From a virus (Duplodnaviria; Heunggongvirae; Uroviricota; Caudoviricetes): a stretch of 6,457 nt of DNA. A model generated the notes under the pieces. It did no database searches and was not told the DNA's origin. It saw nothing but the letters and a program-made list of their open reading frames with translations. Location: IMG/VR virus record IMGVR_UViG_2563366830_000009; one strand, written 5' to 3'. Below, piece after piece: positions 1 to 6,457 of this stretch (its first letter is position 1; every line of letters begins with the position of its first letter). The position numbers and the translations under genes were made by a program.

Positions 1-224
1 CCGCCGCCCGGGCGGGAATCCGCAGAACGCCCACCGCAGCGTGAGCCGTCAGCAGCAGTGTCGCTGTCGTGCTGACAACGACCGGCAAAGGCCTGAGTTG
101 ACGCTACCAGAGACAACAAAACGAACAGTGCAGCAAATGCTTTTTTCATTGTGACATTTCCATCTATAAGCCACCTCAATGTGGCGTCAATGAGTGTAGC
201 ACTGACTTTTGTTTCGTCCATAAA
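1..224. repeat. Direct repeat copy 1 (about 224 bp, 2 mismatches to copy 2 at 1176-1399); may extend left of the window
   Basis: Read directly: positions 1-224 align with 1176-1399 at offset 1175, differing only at 185 (c vs t) and 215 (t vs c). Contains the perfect palindrome CCCGCCCGGGCGGG (3-16). Confidence 0.9.
163..190 (-). promoter_or_regulatory. Sigma70-like promoter inside repeat copy 1 (-35 TTGACG, -10 TATAGA, 16-nt spacer)
   Basis: Minus-strand reading shows a -35 hexamer at 190-185 and -10 at 168-163. The single repeat mismatch at 185 falls in the -35 (TTGACG here, consensus TTGACA in copy 2). Confidence 0.4.
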
Positions 225-230
225 AAACTA

Positions 231-743
231 CTATGCAGGCTTTTTGGATTTGTACGAATAATCCCACGGATAAACATTTCTACTAAGTGGAGCTGTATTC
301 GTTCGTTCATGAAATAATTTTGTGAAATTCAATACGGAATCCATCCAAACTTTTGCGTTAGCTTTGGTGTGTGCGGGCGGGTCCCAATAAGCTAGTAAGG
401 CTGCATCTCTTATTTCATTGACTGCATATATGAGATATGCGTTACTGGTTGGTTTTGGCCTGTAATTTCCTTGTTCATCAATCAATCCATATGACCACTC
501 ATCCCAACACTGTTCAGTACATGAGTATGAATATGATGCATATTCACCAATATTGACATGAACCTTTCTGAGATGGAAGCCTAATACTTCGTCTGGTCTT
601 TCAAAAAGAGTATCTTTTCCCAGATCAGGATGATGACCATGACGCCAGTGTTGTTTAAAAGCATCTTTTAGCGAAATCAGAAAGTCATCAGTTTTAAACT
701 CACCAGTAGGTATAACCTTCCCGCTATACTCACTCAAAAACAT
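231..743 (-). CDS. YafO-family-like type II toxin (170 aa), putative ribosome-dependent mRNA interferase
   Basis: Good RBS on minus strand (AAGGAAGAGG about 6 nt before ATG at 743). Start overlaps the upstream ORF stop by 14 nt (730-743). Segments LFERPDEVLGFHLRKVHV and TSNAYLIYAVNEIRDAALLAYWDPPAH resemble my recollection of E. coli YafO (FERVAHIHL... and TNDEAHLVYCQG...WLLIAILKPEPH); not search-verified. Confidence 0.5.
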   Translation of the reverse strand: MFLSEYSGKVIPTGEFKTDDFLISLKDAFKQHWRHGHHPDLGKDTLFERPDEVLGFHLRKVHVNIGEYASYSYSCTEQCWDEWSYGLIDEQGNYRPKPTSNAYLIYAVNEIRDAALLAYWDPPAHTKANAKVWMDSVLNFTKLFHERTNTAPLSRNVYPWDYSYKSKKPA

Positions 744-1056
744 CGAATTCCTCTTCCTTCATATGCGTTTCTAATGAGTTAAGCTGGCGGAAAGATATCT
801 CTTTTGATTCTGCAGATGAGAGCTTTTTTATCCGCTTGATATTCTTTGTGATAGGAATAGACATTGTATGCACATCAGCGGATGCTCTTGGCTTTGTGCT
901 GATAAAAATATGGCGCAATGCCGCATTTTCACTATTGAACGAGCCAATAGCTGATTTACGTGCTACAACCTTACCAGTAAAAATACGACTCTTGCTACGC
1001 TTTGCATGAGTTCCGCTTCTTACCGGACCTCTCATCACGAATCCAAGTTTTGTCAT
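730..1056 (-). CDS. Hypothetical basic protein (108 aa), first gene of the module; candidate antitoxin or autoregulator, not YafN/Phd-like
   Basis: Strong RBS (GGAGA, 6-nt spacing) before ATG at 1056. Translationally coupled to the YafO-like ORF. Operator palindrome at 1099-1113 lies about 45 nt upstream. Very basic N-terminal half (GTHAKRSKSRIFTGKVVARKS). Confidence 0.5.
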   Translation of the reverse strand: MTKLGFVMRGPVRSGTHAKRSKSRIFTGKVVARKSAIGSFNSENAALRHIFISTKPRASADVHTMSIPITKNIKRIKKLSSAESKEISFRQLNSLETHMKEEEFDVFE

Positions 1057-1098
1057 CTTTAATCTCCGGTAAGTTACAGGTATAAAATAAAAACAGGT

Positions 1099-1113
1099 TT
1101 ACCTTTAAGGTAA
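1099..1113. promoter_or_regulatory. Operator-like perfect palindrome TTACCTTTAAGGTAA (site 1), overlapping a -10-like hexamer of a minus-strand promoter
   Basis: Minus strand reads TTGCAG(1141-1136)-17 nt-TACTAT(1118-1113) running into the palindrome. The identical 16-mer TTACCTTTAAGGTAAT recurs at 3921-3936. Confidence 0.55.
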
Positions 1114-1156
1114 TAGTACGCTATTCACCCCCGGTCTGCAATCTGTACAGAATTAT

Positions 1157-1324
1157 TTAAAGGCACATCCCTGTGCCGCCGCCCGGGCGGGAATCCGCAG
1201 AACGCCCACCGCAGCGTGAGCCGTCAGCAGCAGTGTCGCTGTCGTGCTGACAACGACCGGCAAAGGCCTGAGTTGACGCTACCAGAGACAACAAAACGAA
1301 CAGTGCAGCAAATGCTTTTTTCAT
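1157..1324 (-). CDS. Short ORF (55 aa) with a canonical Sec-type signal peptide (MKKAFAALFVLLSLVASTQAFA) and a Cys/Gly/Arg-rich tail; could be a small secreted peptide, a truncated gene 5' end, or a non-coding leader
   Basis: ATG at 1324-1322, stop at 1159-1157. The N-terminus has textbook n/h/c signal-peptide organisation, but the C-terminal 30 codons are read through GC-rich palindromes and there is no SD. An identical N-terminal coding segment in copy 1 (from ATG 149-147) runs off the left edge. Confidence 0.25.
   Translation of the reverse strand: MKKAFAALFVLLSLVASTQAFAGRCQHDSDTAADGSRCGGRSADSRPGGGTGMCL
1162..1177. other. Junction hairpin GGCACATCCCTGTGCC (6-bp stem, 4-nt loop) followed on the minus strand by a T/A-rich tract; module-boundary motif, possible weak terminator
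   Basis: The 24-bp motif aGGCACATCCnTGTGCCGCCGC recurs at 2315-2338 immediately after the 244-aa gene stop. Flanking promoter regions (ATAATT...TTGCAG) are also homologous. Confidence 0.4.
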
Positions 1325-1399
1325 TGTGACATTTCCATCTATAAGCCACCTCAATGTGGTGTCAATGAGTGTAGCACTGACTTTTGTTTCGTCCACAAA
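1176..1399. repeat. Direct repeat copy 2, about 99 percent identical to 1-224
   Basis: Same alignment as copy 1. Left boundary falls inside the hairpin motif GGCACATCCCTGTGCC (1162-1177); right boundary is the A-run before the terminator at 1403-1417. Confidence 0.9.
1338..1365 (-). promoter_or_regulatory. Sigma70-like promoter inside repeat copy 2 (-35 TTGACA consensus, 16-nt spacer, -10 TATAGA)
   Basis: Minus strand reads cactcaTTGACAccacattgaggtggctTATAGAtggaaatgtcacaATG. Perfect -35 and 4/6 -10; the ATG follows about 15 nt later with no clear Shine-Dalgarno. Confidence 0.45.
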
Positions 1400-1425
1400 A
1401 AAGCCCGCAGCGCGGGCTTACTTTT
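1397..1425. terminator. Rho-independent, bidirectional-type terminator (GCCCGC-AGC-GCGGGC flanked by an A-run and a T-rich run), terminating the minus-strand 182-aa gene
   Basis: Perfect 6-bp GC stem at 1403-1408/1412-1417. On the minus strand it is followed by TTTTTT (complement of 1397-1402) directly after the stop codon at 1418-1420. Confidence 0.7.
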
Positions 1426-1966
1426 CTTCAGGTTTGTTGTCTTCAGATTTCTTCTTGATGCTTGGTTTTTGTCTAAGAACGAAAATACCAGCCACTGCAA
1501 CAACTGTACCGATCACTGTGCCAGCTAGAACTTCATGACCTGTTAAACCTAATAATGTTGCACAAGCTACTGTAAAAATAGTTGCACTCAGGCCAAACCA
1601 CTGCCCACGTTTATCTCTATTAATAGCCCCGTCAAGTGCCTTTTCCTCCATTTTCTGGCGGTGAGCAAACTCCTTCTCCGTCAGCTGGAAGATGCGTTCG
1701 GGGGCATCAGGTAAAATATCCTGATACCCGCGAAGCAGATAGGGGGGAGGAAGCGGACCCTGAAACGCATGGTGAGCGACAACTATCTCCTGAATTTCAG
1801 GGCGATCAAGAACTCTTGTGAAGGCATCTGGGTGTTGAATGATCTCGTTACTTAGCCCTTCCTCAACTTCCTCGAACTCAGTTTCTTCGTTATCACTTGG
1901 TTGCCCAATAGATTTTTGCATATTTGTCGAAGGACATTCCTTTAGCTTCTGGTTTTCCTCTTGCAT
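1418..1966 (-). CDS. DUF2335 (COG5346)-like membrane protein, 182 aa, acidic N-terminal region and two C-terminal TM helices
   Basis: Motif PLPPPYLLRGYQDILPDAPERIFQLTEKEFAHRQ...RGQWFG then two hydrophobic helices matches my recollection of the DUF2335 family (unverified). The true start may be the internal Met at 1921; the long ORF overlaps the upstream gene by 74 nt. Confidence 0.55.
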   Translation of the reverse strand: MQEENQKLKECPSTNMQKSIGQPSDNEETEFEEVEEGLSNEIIQHPDAFTRVLDRPEIQEIVVAHHAFQGPLPPPYLLRGYQDILPDAPERIFQLTEKEFAHRQKMEEKALDGAINRDKRGQWFGLSATIFTVACATLLGLTGHEVLAGTVIGTVVAVAGIFVLRQKPSIKKKSEDNKPEEK

Positions 1967-2219
1967 TTGAGTTTTTCCCTGTCACTATTGCCCATTTTCC
2001 GCCAGCAGGCGCTGCAATTTTTTTTCCGTTCTTTACTATATATTCAGCATAAACACGATTTTCTGACCGTCTGAGATCGTCTCCGACCATATTCATGTCT
2101 CTTGATATAACTTTGACGACAGAGTCTCGGTTTAAAGCCTTGGCATAGTTGGAGCCAGGAACGATACCCAAAGGGGTGCCAGACTCTATAGCCAGCTCCT
2201 TGACATATCTTCTGCTCAT
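1893..2219 (-). CDS. Hypothetical protein, about 108 aa (MSRRYVKELAIESG...), first gene of the second module
   Basis: The track ORF begins with TTG at 2234, but the ATG at 2219-2217 is preceded by GAGGT (4-nt spacing). Operator-like site 2 lies 22 nt upstream. Overlaps or couples with the DUF2335-like gene. Confidence 0.5.
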   Translation of the reverse strand: MSRRYVKELAIESGTPLGIVPGSNYAKALNRDSVVKVISRDMNMVGDDLRRSENRVYAEYIVKNGKKIAAPAGGKWAIVTGKNSNARGKPEAKGMSFDKYAKIYWATK

Positions 2220-2240
2220 ATGAACCTCAACCAATCGACT

Positions 2241-2255
2241 TTACCAATCGGGTAA
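2241..2255. promoter_or_regulatory. Operator-like site 2, TTACCAATCGGGTAA (same TTACC-N5-GGTAA half-sites), overlapping a -10-like TAAAAT on the minus strand
   Basis: Same half-site and spacing as sites 1, 3 and 4. The surrounding region is homologous to the region upstream of the 108-aa gene (shared ATAATT...ACA...TTGCAG). Confidence 0.45.
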
Positions 2256-2316
2256 TTTTAAACATGAGTATAATGCTTTTAACTGCAACGAGTGTAAACA
2301 ATTATTGATAATTGTA

Positions 2317-2332
2317 GGCACATCCATGTGCC
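2317..2332. other. Junction hairpin GGCACATCCATGTGCC immediately after the ORF6N gene stop; second copy of the module-boundary motif, possible weak terminator
   Basis: 22 of 24 bases match 1160-1183. The stop codon of the 244-aa gene is at 2341-2343. Confidence 0.4.
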
Positions 2333-2340
2333 GCCGCTCG

Positions 2341-3060
2341 TCAGAAGAACCCTGCCTTGTCGTTGATGTACTCCGCGTGGGTCTGGATATCACGCAGGCA
2401 TTTGCTCACACCGACGATGTAGCAGAACATGGTGGTCAGCTCCGCCGCCGCGCCCGATACGTCATGCCCGTCTTCCTGTAACTGGTTCAGCAAATTCATC
2501 AGCAGTGAGTTCTCCGTCAGGCCGAGAACACCAGACGGCGAGTGAATCAGGCTGCGGTAGCCGGGCTTCAGTGGGGCGCTGTATTCTTTTTTGTCTTCCA
2601 GCTTGATCGCCTCCATAATGGCGGGCATGAATTTTTCAATTACCTGAGTGGCCTTTGATAAATCAGCTCCACCTGAGAGACGAACATCTCCACTGACATT
2701 TGCGGGTTTTCTGTCGAAGTAGCAATCTTCCAGTTTTTCGAAGACCTCCCACGCTTTTTCAGTCTCAAGAATTTTCGCATGTCGTGCTGCACCGCGAGCG
2801 GTCCATAAGAAAAGATGACTTACTTTTGGTGCAATATTAAGCAAACCTCTTTGAGAGGACTCGTTCTTAAATGCTCGTAATTCTTCGCCTATCAGCTTGA
2901 AACAATGTTTTCCCTCAATGAATCGATCTGCATTTCGTTGATAGTTTTGACGAATCAGTTTGGGTTCTGTGTCATACAAATCAGCAAGCATTTCTGTAGT
3001 CATTACAGGGATGTTGCAATGAGTTGTTATCGGCAACTTATCAATAGCTATATTACGCAT
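2341..3060 (-). CDS. ORF6N-domain (KilA-N superfamily) protein, often annotated as phage antirepressor-like; N-terminal ORF6N domain plus an uncharacterised C-terminal domain of about 130 aa
   Basis: N-terminal region (VMTTEMLADLYDTEPKLIRQNYQRNADRFIEGKHCFKLIGEE...LWTARGAARHAKILETEKA) fits the ORF6N consensus as I recall it (VMLD-DLA-LY...RN-RFP-F-L-EE). The track start is 3075, but GGAGG with 8-nt spacing favours ATG at 3060-3058. That start overlaps the upstream gene stop (3053-3055) in the sequence ATGCGTAA. Confidence 0.6.
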   Translation of the reverse strand: MRNIAIDKLPITTHCNIPVMTTEMLADLYDTEPKLIRQNYQRNADRFIEGKHCFKLIGEELRAFKNESSQRGLLNIAPKVSHLFLWTARGAARHAKILETEKAWEVFEKLEDCYFDRKPANVSGDVRLSGGADLSKATQVIEKFMPAIMEAIKLEDKKEYSAPLKPGYRSLIHSPSGVLGLTENSLLMNLLNQLQEDGHDVSGAAAELTTMFCYIVGVSKCLRDIQTHAEYINDKAGFF

Positions 3061-3559
3061 TTTCATTGCCTCCATCTTTCACGACGAAATAGCAATTATC
3101 TTTATAATCTAACTGGATGAACTTTATGTTTTCAGGGAGTTTTACAGAAAGAGTTTTTGCACAAGCAAAACCAAAATCTGCGCCAGAAGCATCCATATAC
3201 CTTAATAATTGTTTTAATGCTGAAGGAGAAAAAGTATCTACCTTCACCTCAACAGGGTAACCATCTTTTGTTTTTAGGTCTGGTTGACCTGGTCCACCAA
3301 GTATTTCAGCGTTAAGGTATTTTGCTATTTCTGGATAAGCGTTGTATTCAGAGCGTAGTTTTGCCTTGTTATCGACTGCTAGTTGCATAAGATGATCAAA
3401 CAAATTGGTATCTAAATCTGCCCCTTCATCCCACATTCTATTTCTACAGCTAATCAATTCACTGACCAGTGGTGCACTTTCTTGCCTTAGCATAAGAAGG
3501 AGTGGAGAATTAGAAATTAACCAATACAGATCGTCGTTTGAGATTTTTTGGCCTGGCAT
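3053..3559 (-). CDS. Hypothetical protein (168 aa), AT-rich, translationally coupled to the ORF6N gene
   Basis: RBS GAGGT about 7 nt before ATG at 3559. Overlaps the downstream gene by 8 nt. No recognisable domain by eye. Confidence 0.5.
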   Translation of the reverse strand: MPGQKISNDDLYWLISNSPLLLMLRQESAPLVSELISCRNRMWDEGADLDTNLFDHLMQLAVDNKAKLRSEYNAYPEIAKYLNAEILGGPGQPDLKTKDGYPVEVKVDTFSPSALKQLLRYMDASGADFGFACAKTLSVKLPENIKFIQLDYKDNCYFVVKDGGNENA

Positions 3560-3835
3560 AGCGATACCTCTACTAGTAAGTTACCTACCACCGCAACGCC
3601 AATTGCTGGTGGTGAACTGGACAAGGTTGGCGTACCGGCCTAGTAGGTACCGGCGCACCTTTCGGTGCCCCTGCCCAGCCCACCATAATTCGGATATGAC
3701 TGTGCTATACGCATAAAAAAACCACGTCTGGCGTGGTATGCGCCTACTAGTAATCCGGGACGCCAATCCCGGCACTGGATTTTGCCAGTGCCCGATTACT
3801 ATGGCACAAGAGGAGTGCGATGTAAATTTACCGAA
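3560..3835 (-). ncRNA. Candidate structured RNA: either an sRNA of about 120 nt (roughly 3835 to 3714) or a long attenuator-type 5' leader of the 168-aa/ORF6N operon
   Basis: Multiple nested stem-loops are visible: an outer stem AGTAATC/GATTACT (3748-3754 with 3794-3800) enclosing hairpins CCGGGA-CGCCAA-TCCCGG and CACTGG-ATTTTG-CCAGTG; GCACC-TTTC-GGTGC; ACCACC...GGTGGT. A promoter with overlapping operator sits upstream and the terminator is at 3714-3737. No ATG-initiated ORF in this minus-strand stretch. Confidence 0.3.
3714..3737 (-). terminator. Intrinsic terminator-like hairpin on the minus strand (ACCACG-CCAGA-CGTGGT followed by U6-7) inside the long region upstream of the 168-aa gene
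   Basis: Plus strand shows aaaaaaACCACGtctggCGTGGT; on the minus strand the 6-bp stem is followed by a T-run. It lies about 155 nt upstream of the 168-aa start codon. Confidence 0.5.
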
Positions 3836-3871
3836 AAGGTAATGATAAACGCTAAGAAATATTAAAATCAA
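3828..3871 (-). promoter_or_regulatory. Minus-strand promoter (-35 TTGATT 3871-3866, 18-nt spacer, -10 TATCAT 3847-3842) overlapping operator-like site 3, TTACCGAAAAGGTAA (3828-3842)
   Basis: Minus strand reads TTGATTttaatatttcttagcgttTATCATTACCTTTTCGGTAA. The arrangement of a -10 hexamer running into the TTACC half-site is the same as at site 1 (TACTATTACC). Confidence 0.4.
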
Positions 3872-3920: not shown

Positions 3921-3935
3921 TTACCTTTAAGGTAA
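3921..3935. promoter_or_regulatory. Operator-like site 4, TTACCTTTAAGGTAA, identical to site 1 and 21 nt upstream of the 175-aa gene start
   Basis: Perfect palindrome; the 16-mer TTACCTTTAAGGTAAT matches 1099-1114. It is followed by tgtGAGGAaaagcaATG (RBS and start at 3956). Confidence 0.5.
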
Positions 3936-3955: not shown

Positions 3956-4483
3956 ATGGAAGTTTTCTTAATCATCGTCGGCATCGTGATTATTAATTTT
4001 GTTTTTTTATTTATTGCAAAAAAACAAAAAAGTAACGATATGCATGTTTCTACAACTGATGATCTTACCTTTGTAGAGCATGCACTGAATGTATCAGGAT
4101 ATAAACTCACTCCATACGGAGCTGGTGTATCACTCATGTCTTTAAGTAACGGTTTTTCAAAAGAAGAAACATTTTCACATATAGCTTTGATGGCTCTTTC
4201 TCAACACGCCAAAGTCGCAGGTAGTGACGCAATTGAGCTTAGTAAAGTTAGCATTCGTGCGATGTCGATAGCTGAAAACTTAACTAAATTATTCAGGAAA
4301 GGTCTTATTCGATCAGAAATATATAAAAATGATTTGAATGCTATCATGGCTGTCAGCACAATTAATGAAAACCAAGAGGATTGGATTTCCATAGTTCTGG
4401 AAAGCAATAGCACATCTAACAAGGATACTATTGCTTTGCCGATAAGTGCAGAAGCTTCTTTAGAAGCCATAAACAGCCATTGA
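3956..4483 (+). CDS. Hypothetical single-pass membrane protein (175 aa), AT-rich; N-terminal TM helix then a soluble domain
   Basis: RBS GAGGA 8 nt before ATG. The N-terminus MEVFLIIVGIVIINFVFLFIAKKQK is a clear TM segment with a positive patch after it. Only plus-strand gene in the window; convergent with the 618-aa gene. Confidence 0.5.
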   Translation: MEVFLIIVGIVIINFVFLFIAKKQKSNDMHVSTTDDLTFVEHALNVSGYKLTPYGAGVSLMSLSNGFSKEETFSHIALMALSQHAKVAGSDAIELSKVSIRAMSIAENLTKLFRKGLIRSEIYKNDLNAIMAVSTINENQEDWISIVLESNSTSNKDTIALPISAEASLEAINSH

Positions 4484-4504: not shown

Positions 4505-6361
4505 TTAACGCATCACCGGATCCACCTGGTTTATTAGTGGCGCAATCCAGAACAGGTTATTGCCGGGGATCGTAGTTCGTACATTATGTACAATACGATC
4601 ACCGACATCACCATTCAACACACCAGAGGTCACATCAATGATGCTGTCCGCAAGACTGAATGACGGGCCGAACAAAGAACTCACAAAGCCACGGCTGGCA
4701 TAGCGTGACTGTGTGCCGGTGCCAAATAAAGCCCCCAGCCCAACAGCACCACCAGTAGCCTTTTCAGCCATGTTGTTATATTCCATCAATGGCCCAAGAA
4801 TACCGGATCTATCTATACCCTCAAGCACCAGCTTCTCTGGTGACCAGTCAACATCCTTCCCTTTCGATGCTTCTTTAAGCGCATAGACCAGTGAGCCAAG
4901 AGCAATCTGAAATGCAGTGCCATAATAAAACTGCGCAGTTCCTTCCTGTAACCCACCAAGTAGCGCACGGTTGTATGAAGCCGTTGTGAATGATTTAAAC
5001 TGAAATATCGTTCGCCCCCATGACGTACTCGCCCATAAAGGTGTGTCACCAATACCGGGGGTGATGATAGTGTTATTAACGTCTTTCAGAACCGCTGACT
5101 GGAATACTCCGGCAACGTACTGATCGTCCCATTTATCAAAGTTACCAATGTGCCATCCATCAATTACCTCACCATGTTTCTCGAACTCACTGCGAATACG
5201 CGCAGCCATATTGTCGTTGATACCGAGTTTTGCCAGGCGGCGTGCAGGAAATGCACCGGACAAAATACCGTCTGAAATAACCATTCCGTTCATGGATTTG
5301 TTTATGTCATTAAAGCGATCCATGAGTGTCAGCTTGCCGAAGGCATCAGTAATTCGCTCCATTCCGGCTTCGACTGCTGTTGTCCTGGAAGAGCTGTCAA
5401 CAAGATCACCAATTGCACGAGAGCGTGAATGCAGTACAGTTTCCAGTCCGATACCCATCTTCAACATCTCTTCTTTGCTGGCCTTAAATGCCGGTGATTG
5501 GGATATCTGAGAAGCATAGCCTTTCATGGTGTTACGGAAACCATTAACCATAACCCCTCTGGCCAGATCTGGAATAGCTGATACTGTCATTCCACCGAGT
5601 TTGGTCGTGAAGTTCACATCCCGCAGAAAAGCGCCAGCACGAACAAAAAACGAAGACGGATCATCAGGCATCCCATATGTACCAACAAGACGATCGCGTA
5701 ATGCTGTTATGTCTCTGAGATCATTTGCTCTTGATTTTGAAAGTCTGGACTGTTCTTTCCGTAATTCCTTTTCGTACTTTCGCATTAATGAATCGAGTTT
5801 ACCCTGAGGAACAACTTCACCATTGCTCTCATAACGTGCTTTCAGATTTGCCACACTTTCGTCATATTTCGCCTTTATTTTTTCAGGCACTTCCCGTAAC
5901 AGACTGTCATATTCGTCCTCAATTAATTGCAGACGCTCAGTCATAGTTCGTTTGCCAAATGTTCTCGTCAACTCAATTTCTGCTGCCGCTTCACGGATAT
6001 GACGTTGCAGCACGTAATTCACATCACTTTCAAGATAATCCCTGATAAGACTATCAGGAACATTTAATGTTCTTTCTTTCGTACTACCTGCGGCTTTTAC
6101 AGAAAATACGCTGACAAAATCCTGTGGAACCTTAGCACCAGTAATTTTATTAATTACGATATCTGCTGCAATTTCAGCATCCTCAGGAACCAGTGTTTTA
6201 TTTCCTCTCGACCACCAGTCAACCAAAATACGTCGAAATTTATCGCGTTCACTGATTATTTTTCCAACTTTATATATGCGTGGGAAATAGCTTGCCTGGC
6301 CTAATGCTTTCAGTTCTTCATCTGGCGGCAATAAACCAAGCTTTTGCATTTCAACTTTCAC
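4505..6361 (-). CDS. Large hypothetical protein (618 aa as tracked), charged/coiled-coil-like middle and Gly-rich hydrophobic C-terminal segment; possibly a phage virion or injection/tape-measure-like protein; 5' end abuts an IS element
   Basis: Long uninterrupted ORF. The tracked start at 6361 is GTG; the first ATG is at 6349-6347, with weak SD for both. The reading frame stays open upstream into the IS end at 6378 and to the window edge. No Walker A or HExxH motif seen. The family guess is weak. Confidence 0.6.
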   Translation of the reverse strand: MKVEMQKLGLLPPDEELKALGQASYFPRIYKVGKIISERDKFRRILVDWWSRGNKTLVPEDAEIAADIVINKITGAKVPQDFVSVFSVKAAGSTKERTLNVPDSLIRDYLESDVNYVLQRHIREAAAEIELTRTFGKRTMTERLQLIEDEYDSLLREVPEKIKAKYDESVANLKARYESNGEVVPQGKLDSLMRKYEKELRKEQSRLSKSRANDLRDITALRDRLVGTYGMPDDPSSFFVRAGAFLRDVNFTTKLGGMTVSAIPDLARGVMVNGFRNTMKGYASQISQSPAFKASKEEMLKMGIGLETVLHSRSRAIGDLVDSSSRTTAVEAGMERITDAFGKLTLMDRFNDINKSMNGMVISDGILSGAFPARRLAKLGINDNMAARIRSEFEKHGEVIDGWHIGNFDKWDDQYVAGVFQSAVLKDVNNTIITPGIGDTPLWASTSWGRTIFQFKSFTTASYNRALLGGLQEGTAQFYYGTAFQIALGSLVYALKEASKGKDVDWSPEKLVLEGIDRSGILGPLMEYNNMAEKATGGAVGLGALFGTGTQSRYASRGFVSSLFGPSFSLADSIIDVTSGVLNGDVGDRIVHNVRTTIPGNNLFWIAPLINQVDPVMR

Positions 6362-6377
6362 CCGATTTAATACAGTT

Positions 6378-6457
6378 TGAACCGCCCCGGGAATCCTGGA
6401 GACTAAACTTCCTGAGAAAGAGGTAAACAGGATGACTAAAAATACTCGTTTTTCCCC
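6378..6457 (+). mobile_element. Left end of an IS3-family insertion sequence (IS629/IS1203-like): terminal inverted repeat starting TGAACCGCCCCGGG plus the first codons of orfA (MTKNTRFS from ATG 6432)
   Basis: The sequence TGAACCGCCCCGGGAATCCTGGAGACTAAACTTCCTGAGAAAGAGGTAAACAGGATGACTAAAAATACTCG matches my memory of the IS629-type left end and OrfA N-terminus (MTKNTRFSPEVRQRA...). The element continues beyond the window. Confidence 0.65.

Follow-up and report, generated by a model that had tools for sequence, protein, structure and literature searches.

A variable accessory-gene slot behind a predicted repressor operator in Uetakevirus prophages, with two toxin-like gene pairs in tandem in Escherichia coli MS 196-1

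The DNA analysed here (the window; 6,457 nucleotides, nt) belongs to the IMG/VR virus record IMGVR_UViG_2563366830_000009 and is 100% identical to Escherichia coli MS 196-1, in which it forms part of an ε15/phiV10-like (Uetakevirus) prophage. The prophage sits, with its integrase, at the 3' end of guaA, an attachment site already published for Uetakevirus-type phages (PMC9782041), and encodes T7-like internal virion proteins, an endosialidase tailspike and a GH19 lysis cassette; its close DNA matches are the Uetakevirus-type phages ZX5, phiv142-3, phiV10 and TL-2011b. Within the window, which spans the stretch from a truncated internal-virion-protein gene to the tailspike, positions 231-2340 hold two gene pairs, here called cargo 1 and cargo 2, each consisting of a gene for a basic protein of 108 amino acids (aa; the partner) followed by a gene for a putative effector, YafO-like in cargo 1 and a DUF2335 membrane protein in cargo 2 (Table 1). 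This region is a hypervariable accessory-gene slot, for which the two cargos are normally alternatives. The reading that best accounts for the evidence, and a fairly probable one, is that the slot houses toxin/neutraliser-like modules gated by the prophage repressor, two alleles of which have come to lie in tandem in one strain.

A preliminary description of this DNA had taken the two units for paralogous cassettes, in which a hairpin, an operator and a homologous small basic protein are combined with interchangeable effectors. What it reported of their layout holds: stem-loops of the form GGCACA-N4-TGTGCC and the palindrome TTACC-N5-GGTAA precede both units, the ATAATT...ACA...TTGCAG motifs are present in both upstream regions, and the two 108-aa proteins are basic (isoelectric points, pI, of 10.6 and 10.0) and encoded by genes that overlap the next gene downstream. 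Each pair is also a conserved two-gene unit, kept across genera. However, the similarity suspected between the two small proteins was not recovered, BLASTP giving an E value of 0.095 over 17 residues and hhalign a probability of 0.09%, and the partners fall into unrelated families (phrog_5933 and phrog_10654), each specific to its own cargo.

Table 1. Features of the slot and its surroundings (positions in the window; strand left empty where none is assigned)
Feature	Position	Strand	Evidence or remarks
Direct-repeat copy 1, right-hand conserved slot flank	1-227	-	99% identical to 1176-1402
Small signal-peptide protein gene, 53 aa	ATG at 149; 3' end beyond window	-	WP_000708858.1; phrog_14503
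Cargo 1 effector, YafO-family-like, putative toxin, 170 aa	231-743	-	Pfam YafO_toxin; phrog_1651
Cargo 1 partner, 108 aa, basic, pI 10.6	730-1056	-	phrog_5933; no Pfam match
Repressor operator (predicted) TTACCTTTAAGGTAA, cargo 1 front	1099-1113		exact palindrome
Promoter-like hexamers, cargo 1	1113-1141	-	-35 TTGCAG (1136-1141), 17-nt spacer, -10 TACTAT (1113-1118)
Stem-loop copy 1, GGCACA GGGA TGTGCC	1162-1177	-	3' end of 55-aa small open reading frame (ORF)
Recombination junction, 10-bp microhomology CGGGCGGCGG	1176-1185	-	comparison with single-cargo genomes L002 and L003
Direct-repeat copy 2	1176-1402	-	carries 55-aa signal-peptide ORF (1157-1324)
Intrinsic terminator AAGCCCGCnnnGCGGGCTTTTTT	1401-1419		terminator scan; joined to cargo 2 stop codon; 3' boundary of slot
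Cargo 2 effector, DUF2335, 182 aa as annotated	1418-1966	-	Pfam DUF2335 E 1.6e-15; phrog_3996 'membrane protein, moron'
Cargo 2 partner, 108 aa, basic, pI 10.0	1893-2219	-	phrog_10654; no Pfam match
Repressor operator (predicted) TTACCAATCGGGTAA, cargo 2 front	2241-2255		exact palindrome
Promoter-like site, cargo 2	2255-2282	-	TTAAAA-16-TAAAAT, -10 abutting operator; promoter scan
Second candidate promoter, cargo 2	2270-2298	-	TTTACA-17-CATTAT; promoter scan
Stem-loop copy 2, GGCACA TGGA TGTGCC	2317-2332	-	begins 9 nt past antirepressor stop codon
ORF6N-domain antirepressor	2341-3075	-	Pfam ORF6N E 1e-18; phrog_1760 anti-repressor
Antirepressor-operon leader RNAs	3605-3804	-	Rfam C4, isrK-like, c4-a1b1 target sites
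Repressor operator (predicted)	3828-3842		abuts -10 of antirepressor-operon promoter TTGATT-18-TATCAT
Repressor operator (predicted)	3921-3935		ahead of 175-aa membrane-protein gene
175-aa protein gene	3956-4483	+	N-terminal transmembrane helix; phrog_21690
Internal-virion-protein gene, truncated	4505-6361	-	phrog_342/16310
IS3-family element, left end	about 6378-6457		truncates the internal-virion-protein gene

To survey the slot, IMG/VR was scanned with the conserved sequence upstream of the small ORF that lies beyond it, yielding 96 loci, and the interval from the stem-loop (or, if none was found, the last 1.3 kb) to this upstream sequence was extractable in 84. These cluster into at least nine unrelated cargo types: a 59-aa protein with a 181-aa YafO-family protein that scores above the Pfam cutoff (the TL-2011b type; 17 loci), a single DUF4760 gene (13 loci), the 108-aa and 170-aa YafO-like pair present as unit 1 in the window (13 loci), a 55-aa protein with one of about 150 aa (12 loci), a single gene for 210 aa (12 loci), proteins of 72 and 125 aa (9 loci), the 108-aa and DUF2335 pair present as unit 2 (4 loci), a 69-aa protein with a 288-aa membrane protein (3 loci), and membrane proteins of 62 and 110 aa (1 locus). 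The earlier idea of a fixed control region and small protein with exchangeable effectors is borne out in its first half, in that the control region recurs before unrelated cargos, but fails for the small protein.

Stem-loop and operator are common to all cargo types. In eight of the nine, the sequence is nearly the same as far as the operator, immediately beyond which it diverges; in the DUF2335 type, the promoter lying between the common stem-loop and the operator is divergent. The 5' side of the slot is formed by the end of the C4-RNA-controlled antirepressor operon, where the 3' end of the antirepressor gene and a GC-rich stem-loop make up the left-hand conserved flank, and by a sigma-70-like promoter whose -10 abuts the operator ATTACC-N5-GGTAAT. 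On the 3' side stand the terminator AAGCCCGCnnnGCGGGCTTTTTT, with a shared stem (T)AAGCCCGC...GCGGGCTTTTTT across the IMG/VR loci L014-L093, and then a small secreted-peptide gene. The terminator is fused to the cargo stop codon in eight of nine types, the cargo 1 type alone having a decayed copy. Genomes with a single cargo (L002, L003 and L004) carry alternative cargos in this place. Of 5426 complete E. coli genomes, 430 contain the 227-bp slot flank, and cargos 1 and 2 are present in 69 and 72 genomes, respectively. No description of the slot was found in the searchable literature.

Other kinds of mobile or repeated element were considered for this arrangement and set aside. Independent mobility of hairpin, operator and gene pair was rejected: the copies located by antiterminator (Q-like) or AlpA genes retain a remnant of the antirepressor 3' end and therefore represent mosaic transfers of the whole slot region. 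An integron cassette does not fit, as the 16-nt hairpin is far shorter than an attC site and the sole integrase is the prophage tyrosine integrase about 25 kb away, and a repetitive extragenic palindromic element was dismissed because the motif is confined to this phage context.

The two units in the window are framed by the 227-bp direct repeat, which the preliminary description had missed. If the junction is marked by a slash, the 3' end of the small ORF in the cargo-2-only genome L003 reads ...CCCGGGCGGCGG/TGGCATTCGTTAA, the antirepressor 3' flank in the cargo-1-only genome L002 reads ...TGACGGGCGGCGG/CACAGGGATGTGCC, and the window reads ...CCCGGGCGGCGG/CACAGGGATGTGCC. This comparison maps the tandem to one crossover within CGGGCGGCGG, in which a phage with cargo 2 recombined with one carrying cargo 1. 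The crossover explains why the stem-loop and the 227-bp flank are each present twice and why the C-terminus of the inner, 55-aa small ORF is altered, GGGTGMCL replacing GGGGIR, and it makes the units alternative alleles joined once rather than paralogues diverged in place. The tandem junction was present in only one of the 5426 E. coli genomes, that of MS 196-1.

The stem-loop, earlier interpreted as a junction hairpin belonging to each cassette, proved to be the conserved 3' tail of the antirepressor gene, and its second copy derives from this single recombination event. The 32 nt around the two copies are 84% identical, and each copy folds as a 6-bp stem. The preliminary description, which placed its hairpins at 1160-1183 and 2315-2338, had not noted that the first of these ends the 55-aa ORF and that the second comes right after the antirepressor stop codon. 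In single-cargo genomes the stem-loop immediately follows the antirepressor stop codon, a degenerate copy also lies 3' of the second (BRO-N) antirepressor of the prophage, and other genera show compensatory changes in the stem (GGCACA/TGTGCC versus GGCGCA/TGCGCC), with an unrelated GC-rich hairpin at the equivalent position in more distant phages. The stem-loop is absent from the terminator-scan list and its U-tract is poor; it may serve as a weak terminator or as a structure protecting the 3' end.

The palindrome TTACC-N5-GGTAA occurs four times in the window, compared with 0.00 expected from 200 shuffles, and 13 times in the whole prophage, with no copy in the adjacent host DNA that was fetched. 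Operators flank the repressor gene (L011 positions 22297, 22359 and 23071, plus two degenerate sites): the PL-like promoter beside this gene has two copies, one of them abutting the -10 as at the cassettes, and the PR-like promoter, between the repressor and the cro-like gene, has a three-site cluster of one exact and two degenerate copies. Further copies lie ahead of the replication-distal genes and the structural operon, and others stand in front of each of the two antirepressor operons and of the 175-aa gene at 3956. The prophage repressor (WP_000836293.1) is 43% identical to gp38, the annotated repressor of ε15, and the ε15 GenBank record AY150271.2 marks ATTACC-N5-GGTAAT as 'protein_bind: repressor' at seven places. 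The window palindromes have the same form as these sites, whose annotation in ε15 is itself a prediction, and no binding data for an ε15-type repressor operator were found in the literature searched. The palindrome is best regarded as the predicted genome-wide repressor operator of ε15-like phages, and neither as a part of the cassettes, to which it had been assigned, nor as a toxin-antitoxin operator; since it is not cassette-specific, either 108-aa protein is an unlikely regulator of it. A natural control supports this assignment: in an Enterobacter chromosome (L147 5900-6830), a phage-free copy of the cargo 1 pair has kept the TTGCAG and TACTAT hexamers, whereas the operator has decayed to TTGGCCCAAAGGTTA. 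In cargo 1 of the window the -10 hexamer abuts the operator, in the same layout as at the PL-like promoter. No LexA box was detected near the cassettes with one mismatch allowed.

For cargo 1, the YafO assignment made earlier is weak for the window protein itself, whereas the DUF2335 assignment in cargo 2 is clear. Six of seven members of the 170-aa family match YafO_toxin and no other family (best E 8.1e-6), and a slot relative at 32% identity scores 25.9 bits, above the cutoff. With hhalign, the 170-aa protein aligns collinearly with K-12 YafO over 107 columns (E 0.001). These matches point to a distant member of the YafO family. Its partner, whose gene overlaps that of the effector by 14 nt, belongs to a family of 22 clusters among 5.8 billion sequences, all named ones being from Enterobacterales, and has no match in Pfam, NCBIfam or the PDB. 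The AlphaFold2 model predicts a disordered basic body (pI 12 over the N-terminal 80 residues) and an acidic C-terminal helix at residues 81-107 with a predicted local distance difference test score (pLDDT) of about 90; this helix is conserved in the family alignment. In all 10 contexts examined, the partner gene is followed by the overlapping 170-aa gene, at partner identities of 24-49%. One of these contexts is the free-standing Enterobacter copy, located between formate-dehydrogenase-like and alcohol-dehydrogenase genes, and the pair's integrity there, where the operator has decayed, suggests that it can be maintained without a phage. Partner sequences diverge faster than those of the effector (43-49% versus 75-79% identity).

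Three partners unrelated to one another (108, 59 and 175 aa) accompany YafO-type effectors in these prophages, a pattern that by analogy resembles the mix-and-match typical of toxin-antitoxin families. A YafN-like toxin-binding tail was considered for the C-terminal helix of the 108-aa partner and rejected. Between window 730-810 (minus strand) and K-12 YafN residues 67-94, hhalign and HMMER found the same alignment (MKEEEFDVFE versus MTDDDFNDFKE in YafN; M-x-acidic-F-D/N-x-F), which is not significant: the hhalign probability is 2%, and the HMMER score of 0.6 bits was equalled by 4804 of 20000 shuffles (24%). The resemblance is therefore no more than a lead.

In the cargo 2 effector, a soluble N-terminal part is followed by two transmembrane helices at the C-terminus. 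Because all DUF2335 homologues begin at the residue equivalent to M16 (ATG at 1921), which gives a protein of 167 aa, the annotated start (ATG at 1966) probably lies 15 codons too far upstream; the overlap with the partner gene is 29 nt with the M16 start and 74 nt as annotated. An exhaustive HMMER search recovered about 10 true, small relatives of the partner, and additional matches to large Ig-repeat proteins look spurious. In 25 of 25 IMG/VR loci the partner stands directly before DUF2335, and the pair also occurs in distant contigs carrying an antiterminator gene. As in cargo 1, the partner diverges faster than the effector (34-70% versus 70-88% identity). Two papers on type VI secretion mention a 'DUF2335 phospholipase'; this was left aside as a probable slip for DUF2235. 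Profile searches of solved structures returned no match for either partner or the YafO-like family, NCBIfam gave no useful matches, and YafO_toxin, DUF2335 and DUF4760 are the only Pfam names among the cargo proteins.

Since the promoter-operator layout of the cargos matches that of the PL-like promoter, the prophage repressor may be expected to shut off both cargo promoters in the lysogen, with release on induction or on fresh infection. The cargo 1 effector would act as a growth inhibitor resembling a YafO-type ribosome-dependent mRNA endonuclease, and the conserved acidic C-terminal helix of its partner most likely binds and neutralises it. In cargo 2, the DUF2335 protein may perturb the inner membrane, in which it is predicted to reside, with its unrelated basic partner probably following the same effector/neutraliser logic. 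More generally, the upstream, translationally coupled and fast-evolving proteins would neutralise or regulate the effectors downstream. A toxin-antitoxin or abortive-infection function is plausible, and the biological role could be killing or competition on derepression, leaky defence of the lysogen or a function in the lytic phase.

Several findings weigh against this repressor-gated toxin/neutraliser interpretation. The window effector matches Pfam YafO_toxin (PF13957) with an E value of 9.5e-4 and 19.7 bits, below the cutoff of 25, and its hhalign probability against K-12 YafO is just 21%; for DUF2335 we know of no established activity. No antitoxin or DNA-binding fold is recognisable in either partner, and the models of both are of low confidence (mean pLDDT 57 for cargo 1 and 54.5 for cargo 2). 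The cargo 1 promoter fits the consensus poorly, at 7 of 12 positions, and scores below the promoter-scan threshold, and a 7-nt deletion in some cargo types abolishes the -35 spacing. A PADLOC 2.0 scan of the window cargo proteins and of those of seven other types, with the ninth, singleton type left out, returned no meaningful match. Moreover, a toxin silenced by the repressor is of no obvious benefit to the lysogen, unlike classical prophage defence genes.

Alternatively, the cargos might be expressed in the lysogen as anti-phage defence by abortive infection or superinfection exclusion, with the slot a hotspot of the P2/P4 kind whose low-level expression, despite the operator, leads to killing or blocking on infection by other phages. 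Many alternative cargos, mostly of two genes and toxin-like or membrane-associated, agree with this, as do an Abi_alpha gene near one cargo 1 homologue, the presence of one operator per cargo promoter compared with two at PL, which makes leakiness possible, and a mismatch in the operator of the DUF4760 cargo. However, among the cargos tested none gave a meaningful score with a known defence family, and the overlap of -10 and operator is the same as at a promoter that must stay silent in lysogens; such a role appears rather unlikely. The cargos may instead be lytic-phase accessory genes, that is, early genes that come on only upon derepression and serve host shut-off, counter-defence or exclusion of co-infecting phages in the producer cycle, with the upstream protein a co-factor or timer instead of an antitoxin. 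Although repressor-operator control like that of the early, late and antirepressor operons and the bracketing of the cargos by their own promoter and terminator are consistent with this, the free-standing chromosomal cargo 1 pair with its decayed operator fits a self-contained toxin/neutraliser pair better, and YafO-type effectors swap partners as toxin-antitoxin families do; we consider this explanation improbable.

The proposal of the preliminary description, that a homologous small basic protein together with hairpin and operator forms a common control module for interchangeable effectors, is largely refuted and now very improbable. It was founded on control regions common to both units and on first genes that in both cases encode 108-aa basic proteins and overlap the gene downstream. 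Against it, the 108-aa proteins show no homology at sequence or profile level, the same control region also precedes at least seven other cargos with a different first gene or a single gene, the operator is found genome-wide, including at the immunity region, and it is decayed in the phage-free chromosomal copy, where the gene pair is intact. Within the repressor-gated interpretation, a stricter version would have the slot wired to the immunity repressor such that toxin-like cargos fire only when the repressor is inactivated, either through induction or through an antirepressor that an incoming relative brings with it. This version is unlikely. If true, the cargos would be 'derepression-triggered' prophage competition or abortive modules, unlike the constitutively expressed defence genes of other hotspots, and among them would be two partner families new for YafO-type and DUF2335 effectors.

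Among the known systems that come close, cargo 1 recalls the K-12 yafN-yafO type II toxin-antitoxin pair of the dinB operon. The effector has weak, collinear, full-length similarity to YafO; both are two-gene operons, kept as a pair, in which a small upstream gene overlaps the toxin gene; and both are tied to a stress-sensitive repressor, yafNO being under LexA and the cargo, in the prophage, apparently under the phage repressor. However, the cargo 1 partner is not YafN-like (Phd/YefM-type) and, in its predicted structure, is without a folded DNA-binding domain, the effector has 170 aa with a Cys-containing insert compared with 132 aa in YafO, and the operator is that of the phage repressor rather than the antitoxin's. 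Antitoxin autoregulation was not recognised, the sole palindrome being the phage operator shared with unrelated cargos and the partner being mostly disordered in prediction. The C4 and isrK RNAs upstream of the antirepressor recall the immI region of P1 (c4-icd-ant) and isrK-anrP of Gifsy-1. In P1, operators of the C1 repressor are dispersed over the genome, and the dispersal of one repressor operator over many promoters is likewise seen here; this likeness concerns the slot flank and not the cargos, and the palindrome is symmetric, in contrast to the P1 C1 site. As with lambdoid morons, each cargo is an autonomous unit between promoter and terminator, and two of the proteins carry the PHROG label 'moron', but morons are typically expressed from the repressed prophage, whereas the slot promoter carries a repressor operator, and promoter and terminator belong to the slot rather than to the cargo.

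Hotspots of antiviral systems in P2 and P4 prophages and satellites (Rousset et al. 2022, PMC9122126) likewise place alternative, horizontally exchanged cargos at a fixed position between conserved phage genes. The slot differs in belonging to Uetakevirus, in the exact operator-to-terminator boundaries of its cargos, in the immunity-repressor operator in front of them, and in that the slot cargos tested with PADLOC 2.0 are without a known defence system. The PeSL promoter/stem-loop cassettes of T4-type phages (Arbiol et al. 2010, PMC2839356; Comeau et al. 2014, PMC4122927) provide a second parallel: composite motifs of stem-loop and promoter lie beside non-essential ORFs without a known function, and modules are swapped or duplicated at these motifs; a stem-loop followed by promoter and operator stands at the 5' edge of every slot cargo. 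In contrast to PeSL cassettes, the slot is found in a temperate phage, has a repressor operator within the motif and a stem-loop with a poor U-tract, and its sole mapped crossover lies in a 10-bp microhomology beside the stem-loop, not in the promoter itself.

The finding belongs to known kinds, namely prophage accessory hotspots and toxin-antitoxin-like pairs, for which wiring to the repressor is unusual, and this wiring raises the question of when prophage accessory toxins act. The slot is compact and precisely bounded, and about 8% of complete E. coli genomes have it. Of its cargo modules, which are unstudied and number at least nine, two combine YafO-type effectors with different, unrelated partners and one is the DUF2335 module; a further pair of the YafO kind occupies an adjacent position. 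As each module is shorter than 1 kb and has a known promoter and terminator, the collection is suited to screens for toxin-neutraliser, phage-exclusion and counter-defence activity.

The antirepressor operon upstream of cargo 2 comprises, in order, an RNA leader, a 168-aa gene and the ORF6N antirepressor. Rfam scores for the leader are 76.7 bits for C4 (gathering score 45), 68.1 for isrK (50) and 45.1 for c4-a1b1 (46.7), which identifies it by sequence as a predicted circuit of the P1 immI and Gifsy-1 isrK type in a Uetakevirus prophage; the 'Rha family pseudogene' that PGAP annotates over the C4 RNA is probably a misannotation. The BRO-N antirepressor (L001 11224-11945) and the ORF6N antirepressor (window 2341-2600) are nearly the same over some 80 aa at their C-terminal ends and have the same 3' stem-loop, suggesting that antirepressor N-termini have been shuffled onto a common C-terminal module.

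At the other edge of the slot, the small signal-peptide protein (53 or 55 aa) starts MKKAFAALFVLLSLVASTQAFA... and has a Gly-rich mature part with two Cys. Its gene has no repressor operator in front and may, of all genes in the region, be the only one that the lysogen expresses. With its internal-virion-protein gene cut short by the IS3-family element, the MS 196-1 prophage is probably defective; a second IS3 copy splits a holin gene elsewhere in the prophage (L001 5561-6789). On the side of the antirepressor operon that carries the 175-aa gene in the window, other genomes have a third YafO-type pair (175 aa and 168 aa; L003 7804-8827) or, in L004, an Arc-family gene, and this side is probably a second variable slot.

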